Shown: positions 4,591 to 29,878 of the stretch, piece after piece
Numbering within the stretch: position 1 is the first letter of the stretch
Layout: each line of letters starts with the position of its first letter
IMG/VR virus record: IMGVR_UViG_3300028888_000074
Location: 32,001 to 96,000 of that record
Length of the DNA stretch: 64,000 bases
Strand: one strand, 5' to 3'
Source: a virus
Taxonomy: Duplodnaviria > Caudoviricetes
Made by a program: the position numbers and the translations under genes
The notes under the pieces: generated by a model
The model's database searches: none
Told to the model about the DNA's origin: nothing
What the model saw: only the letters and a program-made list of their open reading frames with translations

Positions 4591-4605
4591 ATTTATAAAT
4601 TTTAA

Positions 4606-6003
4606 TAGTTTCTAGCAAGAAGTCTCCCTCCTTTAGGCGGGGGTTGAATTGCTCTTTGTTATTTTATGGTTATTATACACTTTTTTTTGGAAAAACCAAA
4701 TACCTTTTGTAATACACCAAACTATTTATACATACATGTTAAAAGCGTTCAAATACAGACTGTTGCCAGATACCGAACAGGCCGAGTACATCAAACGTAC
4801 CATCGGCTCGGCCAGGTTTGTCTACAACTGGCTGTTGAATGACTACAAGGAACAGCTTGACATTTATAACCAGAATAACAAGCAAGGAAACAAACCAATA
4901 ATCAAGGAAGTCACTGAAGCCAAAAAGGACAATTATTTCCTGTCTGGCGTGGATTCATTGGCCTTGGCCAATGCCAAGCTCAACCTGAACACGGCATTGA
5001 GGAACTTCTTCGACTCACGGAATGGAAAAAGAAAGGGCAGGAAAATCGGGTTCCCGAAACCACACAAGAAAACGAAATGCAGATGGAGTTACACAACGAA
5101 CAACCAGGGAGGAAACATAAGGGTTGAAAACGGGCACATCTGTCTACCGAAAATAAAGTGGGTCAAACTAATACAGCACAGGGAACTGGAAGGAGTGATA
5201 CGAAGCGCAACCGTTTCCATGGAACGGAACGGCGATTTCTATGTCTCGGTTCTCTGCAACGTGGAACAAGCAAAGAAACAAAGACAAAAACCAGATACAA
5301 TCAAGGTCGTCGGCCTTGATATGTCATACACCGAATTCGTTGTCGATTCCGACACGTTGTCTGACGATACGAAACCCAAGTACGTCAGGCAATACAGGAG
5401 TAATGAGAAGAAACGGTCAAGGCTTAACCGAGCCATGTCAAGAAAGGCAATCGGTTCCAGGAACAGGGACAAAGCCAGAGTCAGGCTTGCAAAGCTTGAC
5501 AGGCACATTGCAAACTGCCGAACTGATTTCGCCCACAAGATGAGCAGGCACTATGCTGAGAACTATGACGTTATTGTAATAGAAGACATAGACATGCAGT
5601 CGCAAGCCAGGAAAAAGATGAGGGGACACGGAAAGTCAGCCAACGACTTGGGCTGGGGACAGTTCAAGTCTTACCTGAAATACAAATGCGAGATATATGG
5701 GTCGCTTTTTGTTGTTGCGGACAAATGGTTTGCAAGTTCGAAGACATGTAACCTTTGCGGAACGGTCAACCACGGATTGACGTTGTCCGACAGGGAGTGG
5801 ACATGTCCAGAATGCGGAGCAACACTACATCGTGACTACAATGCGGCATGTAACCTCAGGGACTGGTATTTTGAAAGATATAATACCGTAGGGACTACGG
5901 GAATTCACGCTTGTGGAGATTCAGCCGATACAGCAGGGGGAACCCTGCTGCAAGCTGGGTCGTTGAAACAAGAAGCACCTTCCTTCAGGGAGGGGTAGTT
6001 CAC
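4606..6003 (+). mobile_element. IS200/IS605-family tnpB-only element 1 (target motif probably TTAA)
   Basis: Left-end hairpin CTCCCTCC-ttta-GGCGGGGG at 4624; right end GAAG-hairpin-TAGTTCAC ending at 6003; left boundary uncertain by about 1 nt. Confidence 0.85.
4736..5998 (+). CDS. tnpB: RNA-guided endonuclease TnpB
   Basis: MLKAFKYRL HTH start; RuvC-I VGLD, RuvC-II VIED, Zn finger CNLC/CPEC, RuvC-III RDYNAA. Confidence 0.95.
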   Translation: MLKAFKYRLLPDTEQAEYIKRTIGSARFVYNWLLNDYKEQLDIYNQNNKQGNKPIIKEVTEAKKDNYFLSGVDSLALANAKLNLNTALRNFFDSRNGKRKGRKIGFPKPHKKTKCRWSYTTNNQGGNIRVENGHICLPKIKWVKLIQHRELEGVIRSATVSMERNGDFYVSVLCNVEQAKKQRQKPDTIKVVGLDMSYTEFVVDSDTLSDDTKPKYVRQYRSNEKKRSRLNRAMSRKAIGSRNRDKARVRLAKLDRHIANCRTDFAHKMSRHYAENYDVIVIEDIDMQSQARKKMRGHGKSANDLGWGQFKSYLKYKCEIYGSLFVVADKWFASSKTCNLCGTVNHGLTLSDREWTCPECGATLHRDYNAACNLRDWYFERYNTVGTTGIHACGDSADTAGGTLLQAGSLKQEAPSFREG

Positions 6004-6039
6004 ATTAACAATACTATTATACAATAATATTTTTTAATT

Positions 6040-7236
6040 TCAAACTTTTAATTTCAATTGCATTCTAGCCATGTTTATCTCTGTGGAATCACCCATATGC
6101 TTTCCAGCATCGTCAGAAATCTTGATGCAATTTTCCCAATCTGAATTTCTATCAAGACGGCACCCTTTTAATTTCATAACAATGTTAGCTGGACTCCAAG
6201 ATACACCCGTATCATTTGTTAAGTTAGTACCTATACCGAAACTTACATTACATCTACCTTTAAACTCATCATTAATACGTTTTGCCTTATCAAAGTCAAG
6301 AGAATTACTGAAAACAATAAGTTTTGATTTAGGGTCAATTCCGAACGACCTAATCTTATTCAATATCTTAATACCAACTTCAATTTCATCACCGCTATCC
6401 TGTCTGAACCCAGACAATAGATGAGCTTGTTTTTTAGTCAGTGTGTTGAGAAACGAATCTGTTGTATATGTATCAACTAATGCGGTTCCAAGGTCACCTT
6501 GATATACATCAATCCAATCTTCAAGACTGAGATAGTTTGCACGTTTATAACCAAATGTAGCTCCATGAAACATAACCCATTCGTGAGGGAACGTCCCAAT
6601 AGGCTTCATATTGTATTTCATAGCGAAGTAAACATTTGATGTTCCAGCACATGTTTTAGACTCACTCTTGATTTGTTTAATAACAAATTCCTGTACATCA
6701 GCACTATATCTTCTTCTTGTTCCAAATTCACTGAAAACGATATTGTTTTTATTTGCTAACATAAGTTTATCGTGTAGATTGTTACAAATAGTGAAGATAC
6801 TTGGTTCCTCATTTAATGATTCCTCTTTTAGTTTGTTTCTAATTTCAGAATAAATTGATAAAACCATAATTTCATAAAGCGTAACTTTATACAGTTTATC
6901 AATTGCCTTGCAATGAAATACATTGTCTTCATCAAACCAAAAATCCATTTTGTCAGGATTAAATCTAAATGTTGACAACCATTCCCAATATGTTGCTGGA
7001 ATATATGGAATATTTTTTATACACCAGCACATTTCATCATCAGTTAATGAAAGTTGCTTTACTTCATTGATTTGTTCATTAAACATTTCAATAAATTTAT
7101 CCTTCAATTCTGGTTCCCAAGACTCTTCACGTCTGTCGGTAAATTCAAATATACCCTGTGCATTCGGGTATAGTTTAAAATAAGCATAGCTTGTGCTAAA
7201 TTTATAAAGGTCTGTGTCTAAAATACTTTTAACCAT
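6040..7236 (-). CDS. pncB: nicotinate phosphoribosyltransferase
   Basis: SILDTDLYK, EFGTRRR, GTSNV, GTFPHEW, RQDSGD, FGIGTNL, NIVMK, KISD. Confidence 0.93.
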   Translation of the reverse strand: MVKSILDTDLYKFSTSYAYFKLYPNAQGIFEFTDRREESWEPELKDKFIEMFNEQINEVKQLSLTDDEMCWCIKNIPYIPATYWEWLSTFRFNPDKMDFWFDEDNVFHCKAIDKLYKVTLYEIMVLSIYSEIRNKLKEESLNEEPSIFTICNNLHDKLMLANKNNIVFSEFGTRRRYSADVQEFVIKQIKSESKTCAGTSNVYFAMKYNMKPIGTFPHEWVMFHGATFGYKRANYLSLEDWIDVYQGDLGTALVDTYTTDSFLNTLTKKQAHLLSGFRQDSGDEIEVGIKILNKIRSFGIDPKSKLIVFSNSLDFDKAKRINDEFKGRCNVSFGIGTNLTNDTGVSWSPANIVMKLKGCRLDRNSDWENCIKISDDAGKHMGDSTEINMARMQLKLKV

Positions 7237-7306
7237 TTTCTTATGAATTAAGTTTTAATAATCTAAGTCTTGCATGATTGTTTTTCAATTCATCAAAATC
7301 TTTTAC

Positions 7307-8694
7307 GATTAACGTGCAAGAAAGCCCACTGCTTTAGCTGTGGGATGAATTGCACTCTATTATAATATACATTTTTTTTGAAAAAACCAAAACTTTTTCA
7401 AAAAACACACTATTTATAAGTACATGATACAGTACAGGACATATACAATCAGGCTGTTTCCGAACATGGAGCAGGAACAGGAACTCAAAAACCTGTCCCT
7501 TGCAAGGAACATTTTGTATAACATGCTTGTCGGAATCGAACAGAAAACCTATGAGGAGACAAGGAAAATAAAAACCGAGTTCGACCTAGACAGGGATATC
7601 ACTGTATTGCGAAAAGAACACCCGTTCCTGACCAAACTCAACTCCAAGGCGAGCCAGAGAGTCGCCAAGGAGGTGTATTCAGCATACAAATCGTTCTTCA
7701 GCCTTGTCAAAAAGGACAAGACGGCGAAACCGCCTAAGCAAATGAAAGACGTGAATAGGTTCCATACAGTGGCATACAACCAGACTGGCTGGAAGTTTAT
7801 CAGCGAGAACACATTAAAGTTGAACGGTTTAATCGTGAACTACAAGGGAATCCCTGGCATGGATTACAAGTCCATGGCGGTTAAGGAAGTCAAACTGAAA
7901 CGTGTGAATGGAAAGTATCTGCTGGACTTGAGTGTGGCAAACAGTGTGGAGGAAAAACAAACAATAACCAATGAAAACAAGGTGCTTGCGATAGACCTCG
8001 GCCTAAAGAACCTTTGCAACGGCGTGGACAACCTCGGCTCTGTTGTAGTGTTACCAAACAAAGCCAGGAAAATAAACAGGTACTTCAGGAAACAGATATC
8101 GGCTGTACAGTCGAAGATGGACAGGTGCATCAAGGGCAGCAGCCGACACTGCAAGCTCAAAAAAACGAAAAGGAAACTCTATAACAGGAGGAATGCACAG
8201 ATAAAACAGACTCTGCATATCCAGAGTAAAAAACTGGTGGATATGAACTACAAGACGATTGTAGTTGGTGACTTGAGTGTGAAGAAGCTGATGGATAAGG
8301 GGAGCAACAAGCTGACCAAGACTTCCAGAAGCTTCGGCGAATCATCGATAGCCACATTCATGGAATACCTTGCATACAAGTGCCAGAACAGCAACACCGA
8401 GCTGGTGACAATCAACGAGATGTGGACAACACAGCAGAACTGTCTGACTGGCAAGCTGTTCAAGGAGAAGGTCGGACTGTCCGACAGGACTGTCATGCTT
8501 TCGGATTCCATAGAGATAGACCGTGATTTGAACGCCGCAATCAACATAATGAAGCGGTACGAGCAGAATCACCTTGCGCTGCTGACAGCGCCGCTGGATG
8601 TTTCCAGTGTGGTCAACAGGCACAACCTGTTGACAGATACGTGTTCTTGAAACAGGTCAAGAACCCCACGGTTTTAACCGTGTGAGTATGTCAG
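7307..8694 (+). mobile_element. IS200/IS605-family tnpB-only element 2 (target motif TTAC)
   Basis: TTAC|GATTAACGTGCAAGAAAG-hairpin(CCCACTGCTTTAGCTGTGGG); right end GAAC-hairpin-GAGTATGTCAG; removing it restores the pncA reading frame. Confidence 0.92.
7424..8650 (+). CDS. tnpB: TnpB with atypical RuvC-II and degenerate Zn finger
   Basis: LAIDLG, IVVGDL (no canonical Glu), INEMWTTQ, DRDLNAAIN. Confidence 0.9.
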   Translation: MIQYRTYTIRLFPNMEQEQELKNLSLARNILYNMLVGIEQKTYEETRKIKTEFDLDRDITVLRKEHPFLTKLNSKASQRVAKEVYSAYKSFFSLVKKDKTAKPPKQMKDVNRFHTVAYNQTGWKFISENTLKLNGLIVNYKGIPGMDYKSMAVKEVKLKRVNGKYLLDLSVANSVEEKQTITNENKVLAIDLGLKNLCNGVDNLGSVVVLPNKARKINRYFRKQISAVQSKMDRCIKGSSRHCKLKKTKRKLYNRRNAQIKQTLHIQSKKLVDMNYKTIVVGDLSVKKLMDKGSNKLTKTSRSFGESSIATFMEYLAYKCQNSNTELVTINEMWTTQQNCLTGKLFKEKVGLSDRTVMLSDSIEIDRDLNAAINIMKRYEQNHLALLTAPLDVSSVVNRHNLLTDTCS

Positions 8695-9225
8695 AATGTT
8701 TATTTGGCACGATTCCATAATATGTATAGCATGCTCATGGTTTTCTTGTGTGGTCCCAGCACAACATGGTTCAATTAAGTAGATTTCAGTTTCTGGAAAC
8801 ATACTTGACAATTGAAAAGCAGTGCTTACGACACAAATATCTGTACATACACCACAAATGAATATTTTATCGCTGCTAGCATCAAAATCCCAGAATTTAT
8901 CATAAAGTTGTTTCTGTCCAGGGGCGAATGAATATTTTTCAATAAAATCAACATTTGGTTGTGAATATAAACTGTCGTAAATAGGCTTCACCAACTTGTG
9001 CCCATTTGTGTTTTGTATACAATGTGGTACTGGCAAGTGTCTACCTTCTTTTGTTGTAGTGTACTTGTCATTGTGAGTGTCAAGAGTACATATCACTTTG
9101 TCAAAACAAAAATTTTCAAGCAAACTTACATTTTCATCAATAACTTTTTGAAAATCTGGAACAGAAAGACAACCACCAAGAAAGTCGTTCTGCATGTCAA
9201 CTAATACAAGATAATCTTTATTCAT
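8674..9225 (-). CDS. pncA: nicotinamidase / isochorismatase-family cysteine hydrolase; C-terminus altered by the IS insertion
   Basis: VDMQNDF, DTH, PHC, EK, GVCTDICV; directly upstream of pncB once the IS is removed. Confidence 0.88.
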   Translation of the reverse strand: MNKDYLVLVDMQNDFLGGCLSVPDFQKVIDENVSLLENFCFDKVICTLDTHNDKYTTTKEGRHLPVPHCIQNTNGHKLVKPIYDSLYSQPNVDFIEKYSFAPGQKQLYDKFWDFDASSDKIFICGVCTDICVVSTAFQLSSMFPETEIYLIEPCCAGTTQENHEHAIHIMESCQINILTYSHG

Positions 9226-9232
9226 AATAATT

Positions 9233-10210
9233 TTAATTTAAGTTTTCCATACTTAATAATGCGTTTCCGCAAGTAATTCTATCCTGGTCCTCTTCAAGTG
9301 AAGGGATGAACACAATAACTTCCCATCCTTCATCGAGCAAAGGTTGTTCAAATTGTCTATAAACATCGTATTTGTAATACCCTTCTGGTGTGTTGATTCC
9401 GTTTGCATTGGCTTCGTTAGTCTCATGAATGGGTGTTATCTTTACGATGAATTTTTCCTTGTCGAACAATCTTGTTAGTTCCTTCGGGTCAAGGATGGTT
9501 TTGTCGGTGACTGGGAAATTTAACGTGTACTTTCTTCCTTTTGGCATTGGAAGTGTTTTTGATATTTCAGAGATTTCCTCCAAAGACAATGACCGTCCTC
9601 TGAACAATTCATTTCTTTGCTTTTCATCTGTGCTGTTTATTGATAATTGTAAACCAGCTTCTCCATCATAGTCTTCGTTTTTGATTTTGCAGAATTCGTT
9701 AAGTATTTCACCCATTCTAACTAATCCAAGATTTTTTGGCATCATGGTTGTGAAAACTGGGTGAATTGTGTCCGCTTTCATTTTTTGATTTACCAAATTA
9801 TGCAAGTCGTATTTCAAGAAATCAAAAACATTTTTTGTATTTAATGACGGTTCCCCCATACGTGCAAGGTGAAGATTAAATCTCTTTGTATATTTGCATT
9901 TACTAAAGTCAATGGCGTTTGACACTTCTTCGTTTAATTCGTCACGAGAAACATTACCGCCAAATCTAACCTTGGGACAATCACAAAACATGCAATTCAT
10001 GGAACATCCCTTTTGGGTTGAAATAGTAACAACCATCTTGTCAGACAGGTCAACTTCGTGATGCGGAACGCTGTTAATCTCTTTCTTGTAGCCAAGAAAA
10101 TCTGCCTTGATGTTGTTCTCTTTTCCATAATCACCTACATATAGGTATTCCATTTTCTTTTCGGTGTCACAATAAATGGCACCAGTTCTTGTTTTAAATT
10201 CTTTAATCAT
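9233..10210 (-). CDS. radical SAM protein, RlmN/Cfr-like
   Basis: ISTQKGCSMNCMFC (CxxxCxxC), MGEP, SINS, C-terminal TCG. Confidence 0.85.
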   Translation of the reverse strand: MIKEFKTRTGAIYCDTEKKMEYLYVGDYGKENNIKADFLGYKKEINSVPHHEVDLSDKMVVTISTQKGCSMNCMFCDCPKVRFGGNVSRDELNEEVSNAIDFSKCKYTKRFNLHLARMGEPSLNTKNVFDFLKYDLHNLVNQKMKADTIHPVFTTMMPKNLGLVRMGEILNEFCKIKNEDYDGEAGLQLSINSTDEKQRNELFRGRSLSLEEISEISKTLPMPKGRKYTLNFPVTDKTILDPKELTRLFDKEKFIVKITPIHETNEANANGINTPEGYYKYDVYRQFEQPLLDEGWEVIVFIPSLEEDQDRITCGNALLSMENLN

Positions 10211-10213
10211 AAT

Positions 10214-10585
10214 TTATATTATATCAACTGAAATTATATTTAATTTTTCATTATCAAAATAAGTTCTTACACCAAATGTTGGATTAATGCCATAATTCAA
10301 CATTTCTTGTAATATCTTTCCGTTCGGAGTGTTTAAGACTTCAACTTCACAAGATATATTATCGTTATTCAATTTCAATGAATTAATATCAACTTGATGT
10401 GATGCTTCTGAAATTGAAGTGTGTAATGCATAATCAGAAGGATTCATTTGGCCATAAATTATACTTGAACCATTATTATTCTTTATGTAGTTATCTATGG
10501 CATTTTTTATCGACTTTTCATCATATTTTCTACCATTTGATTGGTCAACATCAAATAATATTACATTAACTGTTAATTTTTCCAT
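10214..10585 (-). CDS. prohead-protease-like protein (T4 gp21/S77-like), apparently degenerate
   Basis: NGRKY, YGQMNP, ASHQV, EVLNTPNGKILQEML..G; the expected SSRG Ser motif reads GVRT; start taken at MEKL. Confidence 0.6.
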   Translation of the reverse strand: MEKLTVNVILFDVDQSNGRKYDEKSIKNAIDNYIKNNNGSSIIYGQMNPSDYALHTSISEASHQVDINSLKLNNDNISCEVEVLNTPNGKILQEMLNYGINPTFGVRTYFDNEKLNIISVDII

Positions 10586-10841
10586 ATTGTTTTTCTCTTT
10601 GTTTGTTAATTTCTTTCCACCACTTTTCACTATATTGGTAGTCATAACTGTACAAACCTAAACCAACAAGTACTATAGTTGGAATAAGTATTGCTAATGC
10701 TATCCAAAATAATGGAGTGCAATAAGAATACAATTGAACCATTCCACAAATTAAGCACACGCCAAGAGCAATAAGTAAAATTGCGGTAAAAACGTTAGCT
10801 AATAATTCACAAATTCTTTCAATTTTAGTCATAAATCTCAA
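10566..10841 (-). CDS. small membrane protein
   Basis: Two hydrophobic segments. Confidence 0.65.
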   Translation of the reverse strand: MRFMTKIERICELLANVFTAILLIALGVCLICGMVQLYSYCTPLFWIALAILIPTIVLVGLGLYSYDYQYSEKWWKEINKQREKQYGKINS

Positions 10842-11736
10842 ATTTAAGTCCTGTTTTGTTTTGAATATAATCTTTAATTGTAATTTCTTTTAATAAGTCC
10901 AAATCGAATACTGGATATTCACCACGAAGTTCGTTACCATAACATACTAACGGATTGTGAGTCACGCATATTACAGTACCGTTGAATACCATACATAAAT
11001 TTCTCAGAAGGTGGTCAAACTTGAATAAGTTCTCAAGGTCAAGCCCCTCATCAATTTCATCGATAAGAATCAATGACGCTGAATCAGTAAGAAGTTTATA
11101 ATTTTTATGGTCTTCAAATGTGAAATTCAACACATTCTGCATTTTAGTGAACAAATTGCCAAGCATGTGTTGTGTTTTTTGTCCTTTTGAACTGTTTGTG
11201 GCATTTAATCCACCACCATTGATAAAGCCAAATGCTGTTGCAGCATTAATAAAGTTGCAAGGGTCATCCTCAATTGCGTCAAGAGAAAAAACGTGAGTGA
11301 ACTTATCATCAATTCCATCTATGGTAATTGGAGCGCCTTTCAACATTTGAATGTTTTGGCTTGTCATACCGTCAAGTTCTTTTTTGTTAATCTCAAACAA
11401 AGAATCTTTATTTGCTCTAATGGTTTGGAGGATTGTCGATTTTCCAGAACCGTTTGAACCGACAATGTAATTAACATCGCCAAGTCTTATTGGAATGTCG
11501 AACTCAGAATTATTGAAACAACGGAACCCACCGTCAACCTTTACATGAAACTTTGTGTTTATTGTTTGGATGATTTCATTCATCGTCATTAACAAATCAC
11601 ACCTTTTGGCTTCAATTATACCCAATTCTTTATCATCACGATTGTGACTGGCACAATACATATCTATTTCTAAACCTTTCAGATTTTCCGTAAGAGTTTT
11701 AAGGGTTTTTCTGTCTGTATAATAATTTCTCACCAT
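10825..11736 (-). CDS. ABC-type ATPase
   Basis: Walker A GSNGSGKST, signature SKGQ, Walker B LIDEID, THNP. Confidence 0.85.
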   Translation of the reverse strand: MVRNYYTDRKTLKTLTENLKGLEIDMYCASHNRDDKELGIIEAKRCDLLMTMNEIIQTINTKFHVKVDGGFRCFNNSEFDIPIRLGDVNYIVGSNGSGKSTILQTIRANKDSLFEINKKELDGMTSQNIQMLKGAPITIDGIDDKFTHVFSLDAIEDDPCNFINAATAFGFINGGGLNATNSSKGQKTQHMLGNLFTKMQNVLNFTFEDHKNYKLLTDSASLILIDEIDEGLDLENLFKFDHLLRNLCMVFNGTVICVTHNPLVCYGNELRGEYPVFDLDLLKEITIKDYIQNKTGLKFEIYD

Positions 11737-11774
11737 GTTAACTGTTTTTCATTATATTATTTTGATTTGTAAGA

Positions 11775-11836
11775 CTATGATACCAAAATTTTCAATCAAA
11801 AACAAATTTGGTTTTTAGAATTGTTAATTGTATAAT
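11775..11836. promoter_or_regulatory. divergent pair of sigma70-like phage promoters
   Basis: TTGGTT-N17-TATAAT on + (about 11808-11836) and a TTGTTT...TATCAT equivalent on -; the motif recurs before many operons. Confidence 0.7.
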
Positions 11837-11853
11837 CATAAAAAAATTAAATA

Positions 11854-12909
11854 ATGAATGATAAAGAAAAATTAGATTACCTTAACAAAGAACTTGGAAC
11901 CGATTACCAATCATTTGACAAGGTTGATTGGGCTTATGTCTCATATCAGTATAAACTATCCGAGGACTTCATCCGTGAGTTTCAAGATATAGTTGACTGG
12001 CCTCAAATTTCAGTATACCAGAAGCTGTCTGAGGACTTTATGCGTGAGTTTAAGTATAGGATTAATTGGTTTGCTGTGTCAATATACCAAAATCTGTCGG
12101 AAGGCTTCATGCGTGAGTTTAAGGATGAGTTTGATTGGTCTAACATTTCAATATATCAAAGACTTTCCGAGGGACTCATACGTGACTTTAAGGATGAGGT
12201 TAATTGGTCTAGAATTTCAAAATATCAGAAGCTATCGGAGGGTTTCATACGTGAATTTAAAGATAATATTGATTGGTATTTAATTTCAATAAATCAGAAG
12301 CTTTCAGAAGACTTCATTAGAGAGTTTCATGACAGAGTCAAATGGTCTAACATTTCAATATACCAGAAATTATCAGAGGACTTCATCCGCGAGTTCAAGG
12401 ACATGGTGAATTGGGGTTGTATTTCAAAATACCAGAAACTGTCAGAGAATTTCATCAGAGAGTTTAGTGACATGGTTGACTGGTCTCAAATTGCAGCGCA
12501 TCAGAAACTTTCTGATAGTTTTATTTGTGAGTTCGGTAATAAAATCAGCCAAAATTTGATAAATAACAACTGGGCATACAAGGACGCTGAGTTTTTGAAA
12601 GCACAAGTGGAGAAAACTGGCTTGTACGAATGCCACGACGATTACTTCATTGCGTATAAGGGAATCCGTTCGGACAGGTACTCAAAGTATAACTTCCAAT
12701 ACCAATACCTTCCTGTTGAGACATACGAATCGTTCTGTGACTGTTCGCCAAGCGAACACTCATTCGGCTTGTCCGTGTGGACAGAAGGAAAGGCGAAAGA
12801 ATATAGTGACGAGTTTGTCGTGAAGGTAAAAGTTAAATACGAAGATGTTGGCCGTGTCGTGCATGACGGAGGCAAGATAAGATGCAGGAGAATAACAATA
12901 CTTGATTAA
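11854..12909 (+). CDS. tryptophan-repeat protein (9 x 23 aa) with a C-terminal globular domain
   Basis: Repeat consensus VDWxxISxYQKLSEDFIREFKDx. Confidence 0.85.
   Translation: MNDKEKLDYLNKELGTDYQSFDKVDWAYVSYQYKLSEDFIREFQDIVDWPQISVYQKLSEDFMREFKYRINWFAVSIYQNLSEGFMREFKDEFDWSNISIYQRLSEGLIRDFKDEVNWSRISKYQKLSEGFIREFKDNIDWYLISINQKLSEDFIREFHDRVKWSNISIYQKLSEDFIREFKDMVNWGCISKYQKLSENFIREFSDMVDWSQIAAHQKLSDSFICEFGNKISQNLINNNWAYKDAEFLKAQVEKTGLYECHDDYFIAYKGIRSDRYSKYNFQYQYLPVETYESFCDCSPSEHSFGLSVWTEGKAKEYSDEFVVKVKVKYEDVGRVVHDGGKIRCRRITILD
11923..12543 (+). repeat. 69-bp degenerate coding tandem repeat, 9 units
   Basis: Counted from the translation. Confidence 0.85.
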
Positions 12910-13114
12910 AATGAGAGAGCCGAAGGAAAAAGCCAAAAGGTTGTCAAAAGGACATTATGAGTATCGTGGTTATAAAATTGTGTGTGTCGGATACTACAAC
13001 CCAGAGCACAAAGTTTGCTGGGAATGTGTTGACGAAAACGGATGCGGTTTCGGACATGACTATTCATTGAAAGCGTGTAAGAGATGGATAGATATCGAGA
13101 TTGACGGTGAATAA
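12902..13114 (+). CDS. hypothetical protein
   Basis: 70-aa ORF overlapping the upstream stop. Confidence 0.7.
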   Translation: MIKMREPKEKAKRLSKGHYEYRGYKIVCVGYYNPEHKVCWECVDENGCGFGHDYSLKACKRWIDIEIDGE

Positions 13115-13189
13115 CAATATTATACATTTTGAATTTAAATTTTTTATTTGTATAATCAATTTAGTTTGAAATTAAAAAAAATAAAAATT

Positions 13190-13815: not shown

Positions 13816-13892
13816 TGAAAATATTATAAAACATAATAGTTATGATACCAAAAATTAACAAATATTATTCAAAAATCACAAGATAAGATAAT

Positions 13893-14144: not shown

Positions 14145-14147
14145 CTA

Positions 14148-21375: not shown

Positions 21376-21983
21376 GACAAAAAAGTTTATTAAGAGATGA
21401 AGATGAAAAATTATCTGAAGAAATAGGTGATTTCCTTGACAAAACATTCTATCTTGAAGAAACAACAGATTCCACAAGAATTAAAGACAAAAAACTTCAA
21501 ATATCTGGAATAGATACAATATTCACATATCAAGGACAAAAATATGAATGTGATGAGAAGGCGGCTGTTAGATACAGAAATCTGAAAACATTCTCACTTG
21601 AGTTGTCTTTTATTGACAAAAACGGAGACATTGCTGTTGGATGGTTTTTAAGCCAAAAAAACAGAAACAACTCCTATCTTTTTGTGTGGATTGATGACGG
21701 AGAAATTGAGATTGCGTTGGTTGAGAAATCTGCCATTTTGAAATATCTACAGAGCCTTGGATGGACCAATGAATTGTTATTAAAAAAACAACGGAAAATA
21801 AGGTATGCACTAGACAATGATAAATTCGAATATCTTGGAAATTTAGACAATGATGGATTAAAATTCCATTACTCGAAACAACTTGTTGAAAAACCGATAA
21901 ATATATTGTTATATAGGGATGTTTATCGAAAATTGGCTATATTCAATAAATTTTATTCAATAAAAGAATTTGGAAAAAAATAA
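21372..21983 (+). CDS. putative PD-(D/E)XK nuclease-fold protein
   Basis: Q.SGID...DEK...LEL pattern. Confidence 0.5.
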   Translation: MRQKSLLRDEDEKLSEEIGDFLDKTFYLEETTDSTRIKDKKLQISGIDTIFTYQGQKYECDEKAAVRYRNLKTFSLELSFIDKNGDIAVGWFLSQKNRNNSYLFVWIDDGEIEIALVEKSAILKYLQSLGWTNELLLKKQRKIRYALDNDKFEYLGNLDNDGLKFHYSKQLVEKPINILLYRDVYRKLAIFNKFYSIKEFGKK

Positions 21984-22040
21984 TATTTATGTTAAAAGTT
22001 GAACAAACTTTAAAAATAATTTTAAAATTAAATTAAGAAT

Positions 22041-22619
22041 ATGAAAAAGATTTTTAATTTTTTTGCCATTGTTTTAATGGTGTTTGCTTTTGCTTCTTGT
22101 AATGGATGTAAGAGCGGTCAGGATGTGATTCCTCAAGACCAGGATGTTATTGTTGCTGGTTATGACTATGACAGCGTTGTTGTCGGGGATTACGACTATA
22201 TAGCTTCTCAATACAAGAGATTTTTGTTCTATGAGGTTGATGTTGTATTTGACACACTTCTTAATGCTGGAACCGATGTGAATATTGTCTCAATCGGTAC
22301 GGTGTTCCAGGTTGGTGACACATGTGTGATGATTTTCCATAACCCAGGAAAATGTGGTGAGAAACCAGAAATCATAAAAGAATGCGACCACTGGATGGAA
22401 TGCAGTGATATGACAGCAAGAAACCCGATTATGTACGATTCCTGCATGGCTTTGGCAAAACCTTACATGTGTAACATGCCGACAAGAAAGCTAACGTTTA
22501 GAAAACGTGTCGGCCCTCCGTTCCCGAAACATGGCGAATACATCTTCGGAAACGGATACCTGTTCATCGAGAGCCATACAGGTGAGATTACTGGTACAGC
22601 CGTACCTTGCAACAAATAA
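22041..22619 (+). CDS. putative lipoprotein
   Basis: MKK..FAFASC lipobox. Confidence 0.75.
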   Translation: MKKIFNFFAIVLMVFAFASCNGCKSGQDVIPQDQDVIVAGYDYDSVVVGDYDYIASQYKRFLFYEVDVVFDTLLNAGTDVNIVSIGTVFQVGDTCVMIFHNPGKCGEKPEIIKECDHWMECSDMTARNPIMYDSCMALAKPYMCNMPTRKLTFRKRVGPPFPKHGEYIFGNGYLFIESHTGEITGTAVPCNK

Positions 22620-22642
22620 CATTTGTTGGAAACAAAAAATCA

Positions 22643-22675
22643 AAAGCGCTTGGAATTTTTCTTAAGCGCTTTTTT
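22643..22675 (+). terminator. intrinsic terminator
   Basis: AAAAGCGCTT..AAGCGCTTTTTT. Confidence 0.75.
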
Positions 22676-22722
22676 GTTTTTTTCATTTTTAAAAAGTATA
22701 ATCAATAAAAAAACACTTAAAG

Positions 22723-24231
22723 GTCAACTACCCACGACTAAAGTCGTGGGCTTGTGGAGCAAAGGACAGAACCCTGTAACGGATTAAGCCTTTGACATGG
22801 CGCGTTGACAAGCGCTCTTACATCATCTTGGTACAACCAATTTGATTTACGTTCTTTGAAATACTTTTTTAGAATATTGACACTACCATTTATATCAGCG
22901 TTCAGCATACTGCCGTCGGAAGACATGTATAAGCCACGCTCTACCCTTATTCCTGAAAAGGTGTGTTTCTCTTCGGAAATTCCGTATGTCGGAATCGGGT
23001 CGTCGTCAAGCGAGCTCGCCTTTGATGTGTAGCTCTCCTCCTGGGGACAGTATGCTATGCCGTGCAGTTCACACTTGTATTTCAGTTTCTGGCGGAACTT
23101 ATGCAGCGGTATCATCACGGTGTTCTGGTTATTGACCTTACCAATGCTGATTTCCTGTTTCTGTTCCTTGTTGTAACCGACAACAAGTGTTGTCACACCG
23201 AACTCAAGGCATTTGTCCACGATAAGTTTGACCGACTTTCCGAAATAGTCGTCAATCCTGTGCGACCTTCCGTTCATCAGGCGAAGCATCTTTGGTGTGT
23301 TGGCCGACTTTACATGTTCGTTCTTGGCATATTCGCCCTTTAGCATTGCAACTTTCTTATTGTAATAGTGATTTATGCTTTTTAGTCTTCGCCCGTCAAT
23401 AAGGAACTGACGGGTTTCACCATTAGAAAAGATTGTGCAAGCGGCAAGGTTGTCAACACCAAGGTCTATGGACATGTAACCGTCACCTTCAGCCTGTCTG
23501 AGTTGGTTTCCTGCCTCGTAAATAAATTCTATTGAGAACTGCCGACCGTTGTACTGCGGGATTATACGGATTTCCTTGAATTCAGTTACATTTCTGAGAT
23601 TCTTCGGAATGGTGAGCAGGATTCTCCTGTCGTCAATCCCGTACTTTTCGCGGAATTCCTTGGTGAGTCCGATAGCGACAGTCCCGTTCTTTTGGATACG
23701 ACAGCTTCTCCCCTGAATGGTACAGATTGCCAGACCTTCGGAATCCTTATAACGGGGAAGTCTCACCTGTTCGGAATACCTGCCTGACTTTTTCAGTGCA
23801 AGCAGTTTGAAGAACGACTGCATGTCCCTGTCGACAAGTCTGAGAATCTGTTGCGCACAGTCGGAGAGAAGTATGTGGTAGTTCTCATTGTCCTTGCATT
23901 CGTTATAGTTTGCATAGTAGGACAGGTAGGATTGTGTGTTGAAATAGTGCTGGCGCACGGAATACAGGCCGACATTGTACATCCTTGCGGAATGGTAACA
24001 GAGGTTTCTGAGGATGGACAAGTCCACCTCGTGTTTCTGTTTGGTCTGAAGTATTTTCGTTGTCAGGTACATTTCCGTGTGTTGTATATATAAATAGTAG
24101 GTTATTTCAAAAAAGTTTATAATATATTATATTTATAAAAAAAAAAATAAGAATAATAATAAAAAAAAAGAAAAGGCTAGCCTGCAATTCCTCCCACCAC
24201 TAAAGTAGTGGGTTTCCTTGCAGGAGTTATC
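22723..24231 (-). mobile_element. IS200/IS605-family tnpB-only element 3 (target motif TCAT)
   Basis: On the - strand: TTCAT|GATAACTCCTGCAAGGAAA-hairpin(CCCACTACTTTAGTGGTGGG); right end CAAG-CCCACGACTTTAGTCGTGGG-TAGTTGAC. Confidence 0.9.
22738..24072 (-). CDS. tnpB: TnpB (IS1341-like), atypical RuvC-II, no Zn finger
   Basis: MSIDLG, LVVGYN, QEESYTSK, NADINGSVNI. Confidence 0.92.
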   Translation of the reverse strand: MYLTTKILQTKQKHEVDLSILRNLCYHSARMYNVGLYSVRQHYFNTQSYLSYYANYNECKDNENYHILLSDCAQQILRLVDRDMQSFFKLLALKKSGRYSEQVRLPRYKDSEGLAICTIQGRSCRIQKNGTVAIGLTKEFREKYGIDDRRILLTIPKNLRNVTEFKEIRIIPQYNGRQFSIEFIYEAGNQLRQAEGDGYMSIDLGVDNLAACTIFSNGETRQFLIDGRRLKSINHYYNKKVAMLKGEYAKNEHVKSANTPKMLRLMNGRSHRIDDYFGKSVKLIVDKCLEFGVTTLVVGYNKEQKQEISIGKVNNQNTVMIPLHKFRQKLKYKCELHGIAYCPQEESYTSKASSLDDDPIPTYGISEEKHTFSGIRVERGLYMSSDGSMLNADINGSVNILKKYFKERKSNWLYQDDVRALVNAPCQRLNPLQGSVLCSTSPRL

Positions 24232-24660
24232 ATGAAACATATTGCTTTTAATAATTTTTCCCATATCACTTTCAAGTACAGAACTGAAAACGATACAATA
24301 AAAAGGATTAAGAAGGGCGAACACTATTGCCAACATCCTTTCTTGGAAGCTATAATAGAAGAGGATTACGATTCAAAATTTGGTACGGTACGCTATTTTA
24401 ATAACTGGAGTAGCACTGCACAAGAAGACAGATGGTATAGCGGAAACGCTTATTTCAAGACTATAGAAGAAGTTGTTAAAGACTGGAATGACCACGTCTT
24501 TTATGCCGAACAAGAAGACATATGGTATAATAAACCATGGATTGAAATAACATTGCTTGACGGGTCGAAACGGATATCATTTCTTAACAATGATGAAGAG
24601 CTTGAAAATGAACTCGCTTTATATGGGAAACTAAAATTTTGTACACATGTCAACGAATAA
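24232..24660 (+). CDS. hypothetical protein
   Basis: Start MKHIAF sits exactly at the IS left junction. Confidence 0.7.
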   Translation: MKHIAFNNFSHITFKYRTENDTIKRIKKGEHYCQHPFLEAIIEEDYDSKFGTVRYFNNWSSTAQEDRWYSGNAYFKTIEEVVKDWNDHVFYAEQEDIWYNKPWIEITLLDGSKRISFLNNDEELENELALYGKLKFCTHVNE

Positions 24661-24666
24661 CGTGTT

Positions 24667-25254
24667 TCACATTTTGTTTTTTTTCAATATCTTAATATCG
24701 TTATCATCGAATATAACATAATTGGTGACATTTTGCTTGAAATTCTTGTCGAACCATTTTATTCCGACATAACCGATTGACTTAAGGAACTTTGAAGTTT
24801 CCTTATCGCTTCCACACAAGGACGCAATTGTTCCATAAATATCACCTCCGTCTTCACATTCCAGAATATACCTGCATTCATATTGCCAAAAATCGCGTTT
24901 AGCCTCTTGGCTTGCATATGCCTCTCTGCCATATTCACTTTCGGTTGTGTAATATTTGAAAAAGAGGTTTGCAATACGCCTCTTTTCCTGTTGGCTTATA
25001 GACTTGTAGGAAAGATATTTTCCATCTGGAACCTCAACCGTATACACAATACCATTACCAGCATATTGTTTGGCTGCTTCAATTGAATTTGTGAAATAAT
25101 GTCCATATCCGTACATTTGTTCTCCCCATCCAGTGGACAAATATTTTGAGTCAAACTTGTCGAAATCGGCGTTACTTAACGAACCATGATATAACTCAAG
25201 TTCATTGATAACTTCGGTAACCATTTTCCTTACATCGTTTTGATTGAATTCCAT
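24667..25254 (-). CDS. putative ADP-ribosyltransferase-fold (ART-PolyVal-like) protein with an N-terminal shared peptide
   Basis: LYHGS..FDKFD..STG.G..YGYGHYFT..A..YA, GYVGI, NYVIFD..DIKI. Confidence 0.65.
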   Translation of the reverse strand: MEFNQNDVRKMVTEVINELELYHGSLSNADFDKFDSKYLSTGWGEQMYGYGHYFTNSIEAAKQYAGNGIVYTVEVPDGKYLSYKSISQQEKRRIANLFFKYYTTESEYGREAYASQEAKRDFWQYECRYILECEDGGDIYGTIASLCGSDKETSKFLKSIGYVGIKWFDKNFKQNVTNYVIFDDNDIKILKKNKM

Positions 25255-25324
25255 TTAAGATTTTTTTTTATAAATAGTTGTGTTTTCCCGATTAAAAATG
25301 TATAATAACAAAAAAAGAAATATT

Positions 25325-25927
25325 ATGAGTACAAGTAGAAGTTTTAGATTAACGGATGAATTGGTTGAAAAATACAAACCTTACACACCGTCAAGTGAAG
25401 AAACCAACGACAATTTCATAAACCAGATTGAAATTGAAATCCTAGTCAAGTGTATGTCAGACAACAACGATTGTGACGTAAAGGAGATTTTCAATTACAT
25501 AAAAGGAAGACTATGGATGTACAGGGCGTGTGTTGAACATGCAGCAGAATATGATATCTATCGTTGGTACAAAGAAGATGAGGATAATATACTCACCATA
25601 TATGGTTATCATGAACAGTATTGTGGCCATGAAATAGATGATGAAACAAATGACATTGTTGAGGAACTTGTATTAACCGCAAAACTTGTCAATGCTGGAG
25701 ATTATTTTGACAGTGAATCACACTTCTTCGATTTGAAAAATGAAATCAAAGACAAACTTGATTATATCAGAGGAGTTTATTTTGACAACAAATTGACTGA
25801 TATTATGGATGAATTCAAGAAGTATGAATTGACTGATGATGATTTTAATGAATATGGTGAATTGAAAGAAACAAAAAACAAAATCGACGCTGAGGATGGT
25901 GGCGTTTTGTTTGATTCTTTGGACTAA
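25325..25927 (+). CDS. acidic hypothetical protein
   Basis: Follows promoter TTGTGT-N17-TATAAT. Confidence 0.7.
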   Translation: MSTSRSFRLTDELVEKYKPYTPSSEETNDNFINQIEIEILVKCMSDNNDCDVKEIFNYIKGRLWMYRACVEHAAEYDIYRWYKEDEDNILTIYGYHEQYCGHEIDDETNDIVEELVLTAKLVNAGDYFDSESHFFDLKNEIKDKLDYIRGVYFDNKLTDIMDEFKKYELTDDDFNEYGELKETKNKIDAEDGGVLFDSLD

Positions 25928-25980
25928 CAAACTATTTATTGAAAATAAAATAATTGATTTAGATTAAAATTGTTTTCAAA

Positions 25981-26376
25981 ATGAAGAAAGTATTAAACGA
26001 GGAAGGACTTAAAGAAATGGTCAAAACAATGGTTTTGCAAACCTTGGAAGAATCATACATAATGAACAAAATACAGGACAGGCGTTCAACACAAGCAAAT
26101 AACCAAATGAAACTGAAAAGTCTCCGAGAATTGCTTTTGAGCGTCGGAATTGATAAAATAACCGAAAAAAACGTGCATGGTGATGTCGGATATATGTTCA
26201 CTATTCCGATGGACAAGGCTGTTTCTGCGGCAAAACAACTTAAGAGTGAAGGAGTGGCGTTTAAAACATTAAGACAAGACGGCCATTATCAGGATGGTGA
26301 AATTTGGGATGCCACAATGTTCGCTTATTTTGGAAGATACCAAATGATGGAAGGTGAAATTAAAAAAACCAAATAA
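25981..26376 (+). CDS. hypothetical protein with shared N-terminal peptide
   Basis: LNEEGLKEMVKTMVLQTLEE; CTATTTAT upstream. Confidence 0.7.
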   Translation: MKKVLNEEGLKEMVKTMVLQTLEESYIMNKIQDRRSTQANNQMKLKSLRELLLSVGIDKITEKNVHGDVGYMFTIPMDKAVSAAKQLKSEGVAFKTLRQDGHYQDGEIWDATMFAYFGRYQMMEGEIKKTK

Positions 26377-26928
26377 ATGGAAGAAATTCGGAAAAAGATT
26401 AAAAATCAATACAAATCATCAGTTGAAAGTTATATTGTGACTTTCAAAAACTGTTATTTTAAAAATGTGGAATGCGAAGATTATTGGGTTGGAGAAGAAA
26501 TCGGTGGTGTGTTTTTTATCAATGATTTCTTCTTTGATTTCAACGATATACGATATGCAATTGACAACCAGGTGTTAGGTACGGAATTGTTTGCTTGGTA
26601 TGATTATGTTGTCAATATTGGAACCAACAACAGCGAAACACAGACTCCAACATTGAAGGAATGGTGGGAATCTAAAAATGATAACGACAAGAGATTGAAA
26701 TACGAATTGTCGCTTTATCGGAAAAACATAATGGATTTCAAAAAAGAAAACCTTGTATTGACAAATGACTCCCCAACGGAAGATGGCTATTACGTAGTTC
26801 TTTATCTTGGTTTTGACGGCGTGTTTCAACGGACAAACCAATGGAAAAACGGAAAGTGGTCAAGTCCGATTCGTGACAAACTGATTGCCAGGAGCGCAGA
26901 CCCGATAAAACTTAAAACGCTTGTTTAA
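26377..26928 (+). CDS. hypothetical phage protein
   Basis: YWVGEEIGGV..DIRYAID..WYDY. Confidence 0.7.
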   Translation: MEEIRKKIKNQYKSSVESYIVTFKNCYFKNVECEDYWVGEEIGGVFFINDFFFDFNDIRYAIDNQVLGTELFAWYDYVVNIGTNNSETQTPTLKEWWESKNDNDKRLKYELSLYRKNIMDFKKENLVLTNDSPTEDGYYVVLYLGFDGVFQRTNQWKNGKWSSPIRDKLIARSADPIKLKTLV

Positions 26929-27035
26929 CCAAAAACATAACGAAATTAACGGATTGTTGAATAAAACCACAATCCGTTTTTTCTTGTATCATTGAAACTA
27001 TTTATTATGAAATAAACATTAAAGATTTTAATATT

Positions 27036-28052
27036 ATGTATGAAGAATATAATACAGTTTTTTTGTACGGAGATGTGACATATAAAACAAGTGGAGGAGA
27101 TATAAAAATGGCAAAATCAATAACTTGGGATGAGAATTATATTGGTGAGTATGAGGAAGGTAGCTATAATTATGAAGCTGTTGGACTTTGTGGTATAACA
27201 TCTGGTATTACAAATAAAGAATCCATTATACCATATAACAGAGTTTTAACTTTGTTTCCAATTTTCTCAAGTGCAACATATGATTCAGTAACCAAGGGTT
27301 TGACGTTGAAAACAGGTGATGTGGATATTAAAATAAACACGCCAAAGATGACAGGCGTGAATGATTCAAGTGGTGGTGGAAATGGAGGACCAAAAGCTGG
27401 AGTTTCGAGTTTTGATTACTTAGGTTTATCATTTGATTATATATTCTGGAAAAGTCATTTCGGTGATTATTTCTTTAACGCACAAATTCCGCCGACAATG
27501 CATAATATCAGACATATTTTGAGAATATATGGATTGGATGAGAAATATGGTGGTAGTAATAATGAAACTTATCTATATGATGATGTTGTGTATGACACAA
27601 CACAAAATACATGCGTTTTAATTGACTCTTCGAATATCAATAGTGCAAACATACGTCCAGCTGTCATCAATGTTGATTGTAATTTGGCGTCAGATTTTAG
27701 GTTTACTCAAGAGTCTGATGGCTCTTACACAAGTTCTAAATATGACTGTTTCGTAAATATAAAACCAATTAATGATGACATGGTTCAAGTTAAAATTGCC
27801 ACTGTCAACTCCTCTTATTCATCTGAAGAAAATTTTATTATATATGACCAGTTAAATGATGGAAATGAAGGTGGTAGTAATACGAGAACATTACAAATTT
27901 ACGATGGTTATTATAATACTGATGGTCTTTATACAATATTTGCAACCGTACCACCATATATGCACAATATATTGCATATGATGAAAATGTGTGGCTGGTA
28001 TGGAAGTTACAGTGTAGGAGGTGGAGGAGGAGGAGAAGAGATAGCAGTGTAA
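27036..28052 (+). CDS. putative virion/structural protein with an internal two-fold repeat
   Basis: LYGDV../PPTMHNIRH and LYDDV../PPYMHNILH; Gly linkers; CTATTTAT upstream. Confidence 0.65.
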   Translation: MYEEYNTVFLYGDVTYKTSGGDIKMAKSITWDENYIGEYEEGSYNYEAVGLCGITSGITNKESIIPYNRVLTLFPIFSSATYDSVTKGLTLKTGDVDIKINTPKMTGVNDSSGGGNGGPKAGVSSFDYLGLSFDYIFWKSHFGDYFFNAQIPPTMHNIRHILRIYGLDEKYGGSNNETYLYDDVVYDTTQNTCVLIDSSNINSANIRPAVINVDCNLASDFRFTQESDGSYTSSKYDCFVNIKPINDDMVQVKIATVNSSYSSEENFIIYDQLNDGNEGGSNTRTLQIYDGYYNTDGLYTIFATVPPYMHNILHMMKMCGWYGSYSVGGGGGGEEIAV

Positions 28053-28054
28053 AT

Positions 28055-28084
28055 AAATGGCGGAACCAATGATTCCGCCATTTA
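28055..28084. terminator. bidirectional intrinsic terminator
   Basis: AAATGGCGGAA-ccaatga-TTCCGCCATTT. Confidence 0.8.
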
Positions 28085-28142
28085 TTTTAGTTATATCCAC
28101 CTATAAATTCTCTGACTGATATTCCATTATCATCCGTTTTAT

Positions 28143-29445
28143 GATTTACACTGGAGAAAACCAACGACTTCAGTCGTTGGATGAATCCAGTTATTTAATT
28201 ATACATTTTTAAAATTAAAAAAGCAAAAAAAAAAACAATGCCCGTGGTGCTTTTTACACATAACGGACTATTTATTGTTATAAACATAACAATAAAATGC
28301 TGACATACAAGTACAAGCTATACGCATCCAAAAGAAACAAACGCATCGAAACCCTGATGCGTGAGGCTTGCTTTGTATGGAACCATTGCGTTGCCCTTCA
28401 GAAGAAGTACTATGAAATGTACGGCAAGTACATAGGCGGAAACAGGATGAAGACACACTTCGCAAAGAGGTACAAGATGCAGAACCTTCACTCTCAAAGC
28501 GTGCAGGAGGTGATTGAACGCCTCGACTGTGCATACCAGAGGTTCTTCGCCCACAAGTCCAAGAGACCTCCGAAATTCAAGAAGTTCTCGGATATGTCAT
28601 CCGTGGTTTTCAAACAGGGAGGGTTCAAACTGAAAGGCAACAAATTCACGATAAACAAACTGAAAACAACATTCAAGTTCTCTTTGAGCCGTCCGCTCAG
28701 GGGAGAGACAAAGAGGTTGTCGGTCAAGCGGTCACCGCTTGGAGACTACTACATCTGTGTGGTCACCGACGCCGAAGCCAAAAGATACGGAAAGACACAC
28801 AATGGTGCATCCGTTGGCATTGACTTCGGTCTGAAAACCTATCTCACACTATCAGACGGACAGGCGGTCGAGAACCCGCAGTTCCTTAAACACAACCTCG
28901 CATCATTGAGAAAGGCATCCAGAAAATTTAGCAACGCAAAGCGTGGCTCGAACAACAGAAGACGGAAACGCATGGACCTTGACAGATGCCATGAAAAGGT
29001 TGTGAATTCACGCACCGACTGGCAGTGGAAACTTGCCCATGCGATATGCCGCTCATATGACAACATATTCGTCGAGGACCTTGTCCTTACTGGTATGTCG
29101 AAGAGGTGGGGAAGGAAAATGAACGACCTGGCACACGGAAGGTTCGTGGAAATCCTCGGAATGGTTGCGTCGAAATACGGATGCAACCTGCACAAGATTG
29201 ACAGGTTCTATCCGTCAAGCAAAACTTGCGAGTGCGGGTTTGTCAATGAGAACCTGTCACTGAAGGACAGGGAGTGGGTCTGCCCGCATTGCGGAAGGAC
29301 AAACGACAGGGACTTGAATGCTGCAAGAAATATACTTCGTCGGGGCATCGACGAATTGGCGAGTGCAAATGCTGCTGGCGTCAACGCCATCAGCGTGCAT
29401 GTTTAAGTCAAGAATCCCACGAATTTATTCGTGGGAGTATGTCAA
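28143..29445 (+). mobile_element. IS200/IS605-family tnpB-only element 4 (target motif TTAT)
   Basis: TTTAT|GATTTACACTGGAGAAAA-CCAACGACTTCAGTCGTTGG; IS608-like right end GAAT-CCCACGAATTTATTCGTGGG-AGTATGTCAA; removing it restores a reading frame. Confidence 0.92.
28297..29406 (+). CDS. tnpB: compact RNA-guided endonuclease TnpB (369 aa)
   Basis: VGIDFG, FVEDL, PSSKTCECG, CPHCG, DRDLNAARN. Confidence 0.95.
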   Translation: MLTYKYKLYASKRNKRIETLMREACFVWNHCVALQKKYYEMYGKYIGGNRMKTHFAKRYKMQNLHSQSVQEVIERLDCAYQRFFAHKSKRPPKFKKFSDMSSVVFKQGGFKLKGNKFTINKLKTTFKFSLSRPLRGETKRLSVKRSPLGDYYICVVTDAEAKRYGKTHNGASVGIDFGLKTYLTLSDGQAVENPQFLKHNLASLRKASRKFSNAKRGSNNRRRKRMDLDRCHEKVVNSRTDWQWKLAHAICRSYDNIFVEDLVLTGMSKRWGRKMNDLAHGRFVEILGMVASKYGCNLHKIDRFYPSSKTCECGFVNENLSLKDREWVCPHCGRTNDRDLNAARNILRRGIDELASANAAGVNAISVHV

Positions 29446-29878
29446 ATGTATTCATCTCAATCAATGAATCAGTACATGGTTGCCAGGTTCCTTTTTTTGC
29501 TGATTCTTGTAGCGAGTCTGCCCTGAAATCGACTTCTTCTATTTCCGTATCGCCAGTTTCCCTGATATAATCAATACAGCATTGAACCAGTCTTTCCTGT
29601 AGTTTTTTCGCTTTTTCTGAATCATAGTGATGGTACTTTTCAAATTGTTTCACTTCGTCTTCAGCATCTGGATTCAGTATTGGAATTTCGTTTTCGCTTT
29701 GGAATAATGTTACTTGGTAAATGTTTGTCTCAGTCTTAAGCGAACTGTTTTTGTTTGCATTATCCACCTTTTCCTTAACCAAGTCGGATATTTGTTTGTT
29801 TTCAAAACAAGAGCGGTCTATAACGTTTTTTATCGTTCCATTTTGTATTGAAGTTTCAATCAAATATAAAATTCTCAT
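29408..29878 (-). CDS. hypothetical protein, C-terminus replaced by the IS end
   Basis: Last residues FDILPRINSWDS are encoded by the IS right end; the native tail lies at 28089-28142. Confidence 0.7.
   Translation of the reverse strand: MRILYLIETSIQNGTIKNVIDRSCFENKQISDLVKEKVDNANKNSSLKTETNIYQVTLFQSENEIPILNPDAEDEVKQFEKYHHYDSEKAKKLQERLVQCCIDYIRETGDTEIEEVDFRADSLQESAKKGTWQPCTDSLIEMNTFDILPRINSWDS

Follow-up and report, generated by a model that had tools for sequence, protein, structure and literature searches.

In a 64,000-nt stretch of virus DNA (the window), bases 32001–96000 of the 115,947-bp IMG/VR contig IMGVR_UViG_3300028888_000074, we found four insertion elements, el1 to el4, in which tnpB is the only gene. 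The contig has a CheckV completeness of ~32%, its closest relatives found are phage contigs of 339–361 kb, and the window is part of a huge uncultured phage carrying four distinct TnpB-only elements. It is very probable, for the explanation taken as a whole, that these are non-autonomous IS200/IS605 elements of unrelated lineages with IS608-type ends. The observations behind this explanation are the anatomy of the elements, their exact junctions, their polymorphic insertion, their multiple copies, their conserved RNA structures and catalytic residues, and purifying selection. The elements have ~42% G+C compared with ~33% in their surroundings, and a megablast search of 25 kb against deposited phage genomes gave no match.

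All four elements carry subterminal imperfect palindromes at both ends, forming 20-nt hairpins with loops of 4–5 nt (TTTA, TTCA or TTTTA), and lack terminal inverted repeats, as is characteristic of the IS200/IS605 family; the hairpin stems covary in relatives. On the plus strand, el1 (4606–6003, 1398 bp) directly follows the target motif TTAA (4602–4605) and consists of the left guide tetranucleotide AAGT (4620–4623), the left hairpin (4624–4643), tnpB (4736–5998, 420 amino acids), the right guide GAAG (5972–5975), the right hairpin (5976–5995) and the cleavage site TCAC (6000–6003). Also on the plus strand, el2 (7307–8694, 1388 bp) follows TTAC (7303–7306), with the guide AAAG at 7321–7324, the left hairpin at 7325–7344, tnpB at 7424–8650 (408 amino acids), the right guide GAAC at 8661–8664, its hairpin at 8665–8684 and the cleavage site TCAG at 8691–8694. 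The third element, el3 (22723–24231, 1509 bp), lies on the minus strand after TCAT (24232–24235, read 24235–24232), which is the reverse complement of the ATGA at the start codon of the gene at 24232–24660; its parts, in reading order, are GAAA (24216–24213), the left hairpin (24212–24193), tnpB (24072–22738, 444 amino acids), CAAG (22754–22751), the right hairpin (22750–22731) and TGAC (22726–22723). Finally, el4 (28143–29445, 1303 bp, plus strand) follows TTAT (28139–28142) and contains AAAA (28157–28160), the left hairpin (28161–28180), tnpB (28297–29406, 369 amino acids), GAAT (29412–29415), the right hairpin (29416–29435) and TCAA (29442–29445). The four left target motifs are also the predicted transposon-adjacent motifs (TAMs) of the encoded nucleases.

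In IS608, cleavage takes place 19 nt upstream of the left hairpin and 10 nt downstream of the right one; the tetranucleotide immediately 5' of either hairpin foot serves as the guide, and a change in the left guide leads to a predictable change of target (PMC3201880). From the published IS608 pairs AAAG/TTAC and GAAT/TCAA, we reconstructed a rule by which the first, second and fourth bases of a guide pair with the second, first and fourth bases of its cleavage site, the third guide base being an A in IS608. All eight ends fit the rule, the left guide of el1 having a G at position 3 where IS608 has an A. The left cleavage sites are found 18–19 nt before the hairpin foot in all four elements, and the distance from the right hairpin foot to the element end, cleavage tetranucleotide included, is 8 nt in el1 and el3 and 10 nt in el2 and el4. 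From the 4-mer frequencies of the window itself, with two offsets permitted at each end, we estimated a joint probability of ~1e-16 for all eight predicted tetranucleotides being in place. An earlier sequence-only reading of the window had proposed the left pairs AAAG/TTAC, GAAA/TCAT and AAAA/TTAT for el2, el3 and el4, the right pairs GAAG/TCAC, GAAC/TCAG, CAAG/TGAC and GAAT/TCAA, the 18–19-nt left spacing and nuclease sizes of 369–444 amino acids; every one of these tetranucleotides is where that reading had placed it, and the spacing and the sizes agree with ours. A hairpin-pattern search for orphan insertion-sequence ends in the contig returned only the ends of the known elements and one further match, at contig position 10039 outside the window, which we discarded as it bears no resemblance to such an end.

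Independent evidence for the junctions comes from related phages that lack the elements. Empty-site alleles with other junctions had been named as a refutation of the sequence-only reading, and for all four elements the in silico comparison recovered the junctions it had predicted. The complete 361-kb relative G001 lacks el1 and joins position 4605 straight to 6004, its empty site reading TTTTAA and then directly ATTAAC; therefore the el1 pair AAGT/TTAA, of which the earlier reading had been less sure, is also right. G001 also lacks el2 at its site in the window, and homology resumes exactly at 8695, so the right junction 8694|8695 is exact. In the left flank of this empty site, CAAT stands where the window has TTAC, and the left junction of el2 is therefore set by a second copy, 95% identical, found at another locus (at ~170 kb) in G001 and G002; this copy follows TTAC and ends in TCAG. 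The motif thus precedes two independent insertions, and it also precedes el2-family insertions in three further contigs (L126, L127 and L137).

The two remaining elements are both missing from a syntenic sister contig (L140, 86–98% identical), which joins 22722 to 24232 and 28142 to 29446; a second contig, L141, repeats the junction 22722|24232. The empty el4 site in L140 keeps TTTAT, and the empty el3 alleles of both contigs read CCAT at the target position. As the true empty site of el3 differs by one base in the motif, it was found through the gene adjoining the element, which led us to L140, and not through the exact 20-mer of the predicted empty site, which has no match in the viral contigs. 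Eight matches of that 20-mer in metagenome contigs had no flanking homology and were rejected as chance hits. G001 was unusable as an empty site for el3, the two flanking genes being 68 kb apart there, and at the el4 locus it also lacks the neighbouring gene for 338 amino acids, leaving only the right junction informative. In the empty sites of G001, L140 and L141, the target motif occurs once and is joined exactly to the right flank, and therefore insertion causes no target duplication.

Further copies and relatives, gathered from viral contigs and from assemblies, show the same association of guide and motif. The contig holds two more copies of el4, both outside the window: one at contig positions 30442–31747 on the minus strand (96% identical) and one at 115359–115947 on the plus strand (93%), the latter cut by the contig end. 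Similarity among the copies begins within a few bases of TTAT and stops exactly at TCAA, and all three follow TTAT in unrelated flanks, as do relatives in L028, L029 and L033. The guide-to-motif pairing is kept in the two extra el4 copies and, with few exceptions, in ~25 related insertions in other viral contigs. At the left end, AAAG occurs with TTAC in at least eight insertions (the el2 family and several el4-family members), AAAA with TTAT in at least seven, GAAA with TCAT in six separate el3-family insertions, and AATA/TTAT and AATG/TTAC twice each; five related el3 insertions follow TCAT. L001, a 72% relative of el1, has the left pair AAGA/TTAT, seen once and covarying as the rule predicts. 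The right-end pairs recurring in relatives are CAAG/TGAC, AAAG/TTAC, GAAC/TCAG, GAAT/TCAA and GAAA/TCAT. A search of the species-representative genome collection confirmed no close relatives of the el4 TnpB.

The four open reading frames (ORFs) match Pfam OrfB_IS605 (PF01385) and Cas12f1-like_TNB (PF07282) above threshold, and the NCBIfam model NF040570 scores them at 289.9, 174.6, 138.9 and 248.6 bits from el1 to el4, the cut-off being 100. The 420 residues of the el1 protein are counted from the ATG at 4736; the mechanically called ORF starts at a TTG at 4649 and has 449. Canonical RuvC D/E/D motifs and a CxxC...CxxC zinc finger are present in el1 and el4, and in the el4 family D176, E260, D339 and the zinc-finger cysteines are invariant. 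The el4 protein aligns to the ISDra2 TnpB structures (PDB 8BF8, 8EXA and 8H1J) over residues 13–351 with E=8e-37. In el2, D191, E332 and D368 are invariant and VVGDL stands in place of the canonical RuvC-II glutamate; in el3, the first aspartate and the motifs EESYTSK and NADING are invariant and VVGYNK takes that place. An alternative glutamate is invariant in 19 proteins of the el2 family (E332 within GEQWTTQQ) and in 8 of the el3 family (within EESYTSK), such that all four proteins have a D-E-D triad, with the glutamate relocated in el2 and el3. On their sequences, these two match known clades with a rearranged RuvC-II, a relocated glutamate and no zinc finger, which are considered probably active and some of which are enriched in viruses (PMC10691335). 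We obtained a pN/pS ratio of 0.10 between two full el4 copies and of 0.12 between el2 and its copy in G001.

For the last ~200 nt of each family, RNAalifold gives a succession of helices in which compensatory changes occur. These changes affect 19 of the 32 pairs predicted for the el3 family, 17 of 36 for the el4 family and 15 of 56 for the el2 family, as well as 5 of 54 between el1 and its single relative L001, a comparison of two sequences only. All four families also show a long-range helix between an upstream segment and the last bases of the element; this helix seems to resemble the pseudoknot beside the guide in solved TnpB omegaRNAs. No Rfam family matches any part of the window at gathering thresholds. 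Because the scaffolds end at the element boundary, the guide templates are predicted to start at 6004, 8695, 22722 (minus strand) and 29446, the first flank bases past each element and the same starts as in the sequence-only reading. The template of el1 (6004–6023, plus strand, after TCAC) begins with ATTAACAATACT and, apart from one of its first 12 nt, corresponds to the right side of the G001 empty junction. That of el2 (8695–8714, plus strand) begins with AATGTTTATTTG and lies inside the 3' end of pncA, which is on the opposite strand. For el3 (22703–22722, minus strand, after TGAC), it begins with CTTTAAGTGTTT; its first 11 nt recur at the start of the empty sites of L140 and L141, and guide base 12 is a mismatch there. 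The template of el4 (29446–29465, plus strand) begins with ATGTATTCATCT and has a perfect target, at least 20 nt being identical after TTTAT in the empty site of L140. We found no second target of the four guides in the contig with fewer than two mismatches.

These features can be combined into a model that, for the identity of the TAMs, cleavage, homing and mobilization in trans, draws on established knowledge. Single-strand "peel-and-paste" transposition would have placed each element immediately 3' of TTAA, TTAC, TCAT or TTAT. The left guide would pair with the target and the right guide with the tetranucleotide that closes the element, and these pairings would tell a Y1 TnpA, supplied in trans, where to cut. 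Each element is predicted to encode a TnpB RuvC nuclease, and its last ~150–200 nt, overlapping the 3' end of tnpB, would form the omegaRNA scaffold, with transcription into the flank supplying the guide. The TnpB–omegaRNA complex would then cut copies of the site that have the target motif and guide sequence and no element, be it the donor joint after excision or the site in a co-infecting sister phage, and recombination with an occupied copy would restore or spread the element. TnpA and TnpB use the same transposon-adjacent motif (PMC10055086), and we infer that all four TnpBs would cut, each reading exactly its four motif bases as TAM. Spread of elements via TnpB cutting and recombination is a published model (PMC10055086), and it is plausible here because L140 carries TTTAT and a perfect match to the el4 guide.

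Close sister phages differ in whether they carry these insertions. Moreover, el2 is 95% identical between phages in which the neighbouring phage DNA is only 74–86% identical, a difference in sequence identity that points to recent movement. The related 339-kb phage G003 carries, near its terminal repeat, an autonomous IS605-type element (L026:1228–2549) with a 134-amino-acid Y1 TnpA (1462–1866) and a TnpB. The left end of this element hardly differs from that of L008, a TnpB-only element of the el3 family in the same phage, and the TnpBs of the two belong to different clades; therefore ends and nuclease have apparently been swapped as modules. This pattern of sequence similarity fits ends that are interchangeable and mobilized in trans by a shared TnpA.

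Several observations weigh against the explanation that we favour. Neither the 116-kb contig, which by CheckV represents ~32% of the genome, nor the complete relative G001 has a match to TnpA (PF01797), and a Y1/HUH tnpA inside the element, the mark of the autonomous group, is absent from el1–el4; with no tnpA in the contig, the elements are therefore classified as non-autonomous and tnpB-only, like the IS1341 group. The empty alleles reading CCAT for el3 in place of TCAT, and CAAT for el2 in G001 in place of TTAC, mean that not every empty site is a predicted substrate. Neither the canonical RuvC-II glutamate nor the zinc-finger cysteines are present in el2 and el3, whose predicted activity therefore rests on the conserved alternative glutamate. 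Left pairs that break the rule occur in the L035 group (AATA with TTAC) and in L005 and L009 (AAAG with TTAA), and pairing is also broken in L128 (GAAC with TCAT) and in a subgroup with the right-end guide CAAT. Several of these exceptions look like vertically inherited copies at one locus.

The lack of a TnpA gene in the contig and in G001 also bears on whether el1–el4 are immobilized, domesticated TnpB genes that serve the phage by cutting rival phages or host DNA or through RNA-guided regulation. Exapted TnpBs are documented (PMC10691335), and each tnpB here is preceded by a AACTATTTAT box like that before many phage genes. We nevertheless consider domestication improbable, given that both ends, the guide tetranucleotides and the cleavage motifs are intact in all four elements, that insertions differ between close sister phages and three el4 copies sit in different flanks, that the guides correspond to adjacent phage DNA with no other contig match below two mismatches, and that the catalytic residues are conserved and not lost. 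Slighter still is the chance that the elements are decaying relics with readable ends and inactive TnpBs, which would leave the nuclease panel partly dead. The suspicion would fall particularly on el2 and el3, with VVGDL and VVGYNK at the RuvC-II glutamate and no CxxC pairs, but the alternative glutamate is invariant throughout the 19 and 8 family members, zinc-finger-less clades of this rearranged type are regarded as probably active (PMC10691335), all ORFs are intact, the pN/pS of el2 is 0.12, and the RNA scaffolds are conserved with compensatory changes.

A different emphasis, which we offer tentatively and believe in rather less than half, is that these are phage-resident TnpB lineages spreading between co-infecting huge phages mainly by cutting empty sites and recombinational copying. 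In its full form, the proposal adds that the lineages have adopted the phage's own promoter box AACTATTTAT and act in gene drive or marker exclusion without a transposase of their own, and that the CCAT and CAAT empty alleles at the el3 and el2 sites are resistance alleles; this combination, too, seems to us doubtful. The favoured explanation as non-autonomous IS200/IS605 elements agrees closely with known systems. Like IS608 of Helicobacter pylori, el1–el4 have subterminal hairpins with 4-nt guides 5' of their feet, a left cleavage site outside the element and 18–19 nt upstream, a right cleavage site formed by the last 4 nt with 8–10 nt from the hairpin foot to the end, and insertion 3' of the target without duplication. 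The IS608 left pair AAAG/TTAC is that of el2 and its right pair GAAT/TCAA that of el4 (PMC3201880). Unlike IS608, el1–el4 lack tnpA and reside in a phage instead of a bacterial chromosome, and three of the four have other targets (TTAA, TCAT and TTAT). With ISDra2 of Deinococcus radiodurans, they share a scaffold at the element 3' end that overlaps tnpB, a guide from the flank and a TAM equal to the left target motif, the last being a prediction here; ISDra2 differs in being autonomous (TnpA) and in its 5-nt motif TTGAT, and el2 and el3 fall in other TnpB clades.

Elements of the IS1341 group offer another parallel. In Geobacillus stearothermophilus, the TnpB-only elements ISGst1–5 and their protein-less PATE-like minis share the ends of autonomous elements; their TAMs and transposon-encoded motifs are specific to each clade, and the elements persist through TnpB homing (Meers et al. 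2023, PMC10055086). Here, the host replicon is instead a huge lytic-type phage genome, and tnpB carries the phage's own promoter-like box. A tnpB-less derivative of el3, 357 bp long, is present in another virus (L013:1330–1686, IMGVR_UViG_3300031994_000137), where it follows TCAT and ends in TGAC; it combines a 188-nt left end with a 176-nt right end, 89–95% identical to el3, retains the omegaRNA scaffold and is a PATE-type mini element. With the RIIr branches described by Altae-Tran et al. (2023, PMC10691335), el2 and el3 share the substituted RuvC-II glutamate, the alternative glutamate downstream and the lack of a C4 zinc finger. Phage TnpBs, rearranged catalytic sites, PATE-type minis and the motif shared by TnpA and TnpB have all been published already; the elements are of an ordinary known kind and leave current understanding unchanged. 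Their value lies in the guide and cleavage rule of IS608 being readable from the raw sequence, with junctions predicted to the base even in uncultured phage DNA, and in a well-documented case of insertion-polymorphic, transposase-less TnpB elements in huge phages. They yield four compact TnpB–omegaRNA pairs (369–444 amino acids) whose right ends are defined and whose predicted TAMs all differ; two pairs (those of el2 and el3) come from little-tested clades with a relocated glutamate and no zinc finger, and the panel provides reasonable candidates for a TAM screen. In addition, el4 and L140, with its perfect target, form a natural pair for the study of possible TnpB homing between phage genomes.

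The promoter-like box mentioned above is built on the 8-mer CTATTTAT, usually in the form AACTATTTAT, which occurs 18 times in the window compared with 3.2 expected. It is found 15–41 nt before many phage gene starts and 6–21 nt before the start codons of all four tnpB genes, at 4720–4729, 7408–7417 and 28266–28275 on the plus strand and 24099–24090 on the minus strand; the other 14 sites in the window lie elsewhere. The match suggests that the tnpB promoters follow the phage's own transcription signal. Relatives of el1 and el3 in other huge-phage contigs also carry the box, and many el4-family members in other viral contigs have a TAnnTTTG-type box instead. The closest el4 relative outside the contig (L028:2300–2320, 87% amino acid identity) is inserted straight after a full ACTATTTAT box, so that a TTAT target and the promoter-like motif can fall together; none of the three el4 copies in the contig is located at such a box. 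Between the box and the start of the el4 tnpB, at 28270–28296, lies a palindrome of 10+10 nt (TTATTGTTAT...ATAACAATAA), kept by compensatory changes in L028, L029, L030, L033 and L056 and reading TTATTAATAT...ATATTAATAA in L030. It may act as a translational or transcriptional control hairpin.

Some of the insertions alter neighbouring genes. With el2 in its 3' end, pncA (8674–9225, minus strand) encodes 183 amino acids, the last six of which come from the right end of the element; without el2, the protein has 198 and terminates at a stop codon whose last base is 7241, leaving a gap of 4 nt to the pncB ATG at 7236. Similarly, el4 replaces the last residues of a neighbouring 172-amino-acid ORF (29408–29908, minus strand), leaving 166. 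Both el1 and el2 lie antisense in a minus-strand operon at 3729–9225 (Nudix, a 116-amino-acid ORF, pncB and pncA), which they cut into three pieces, and in G001 the same string of genes is uninterrupted.

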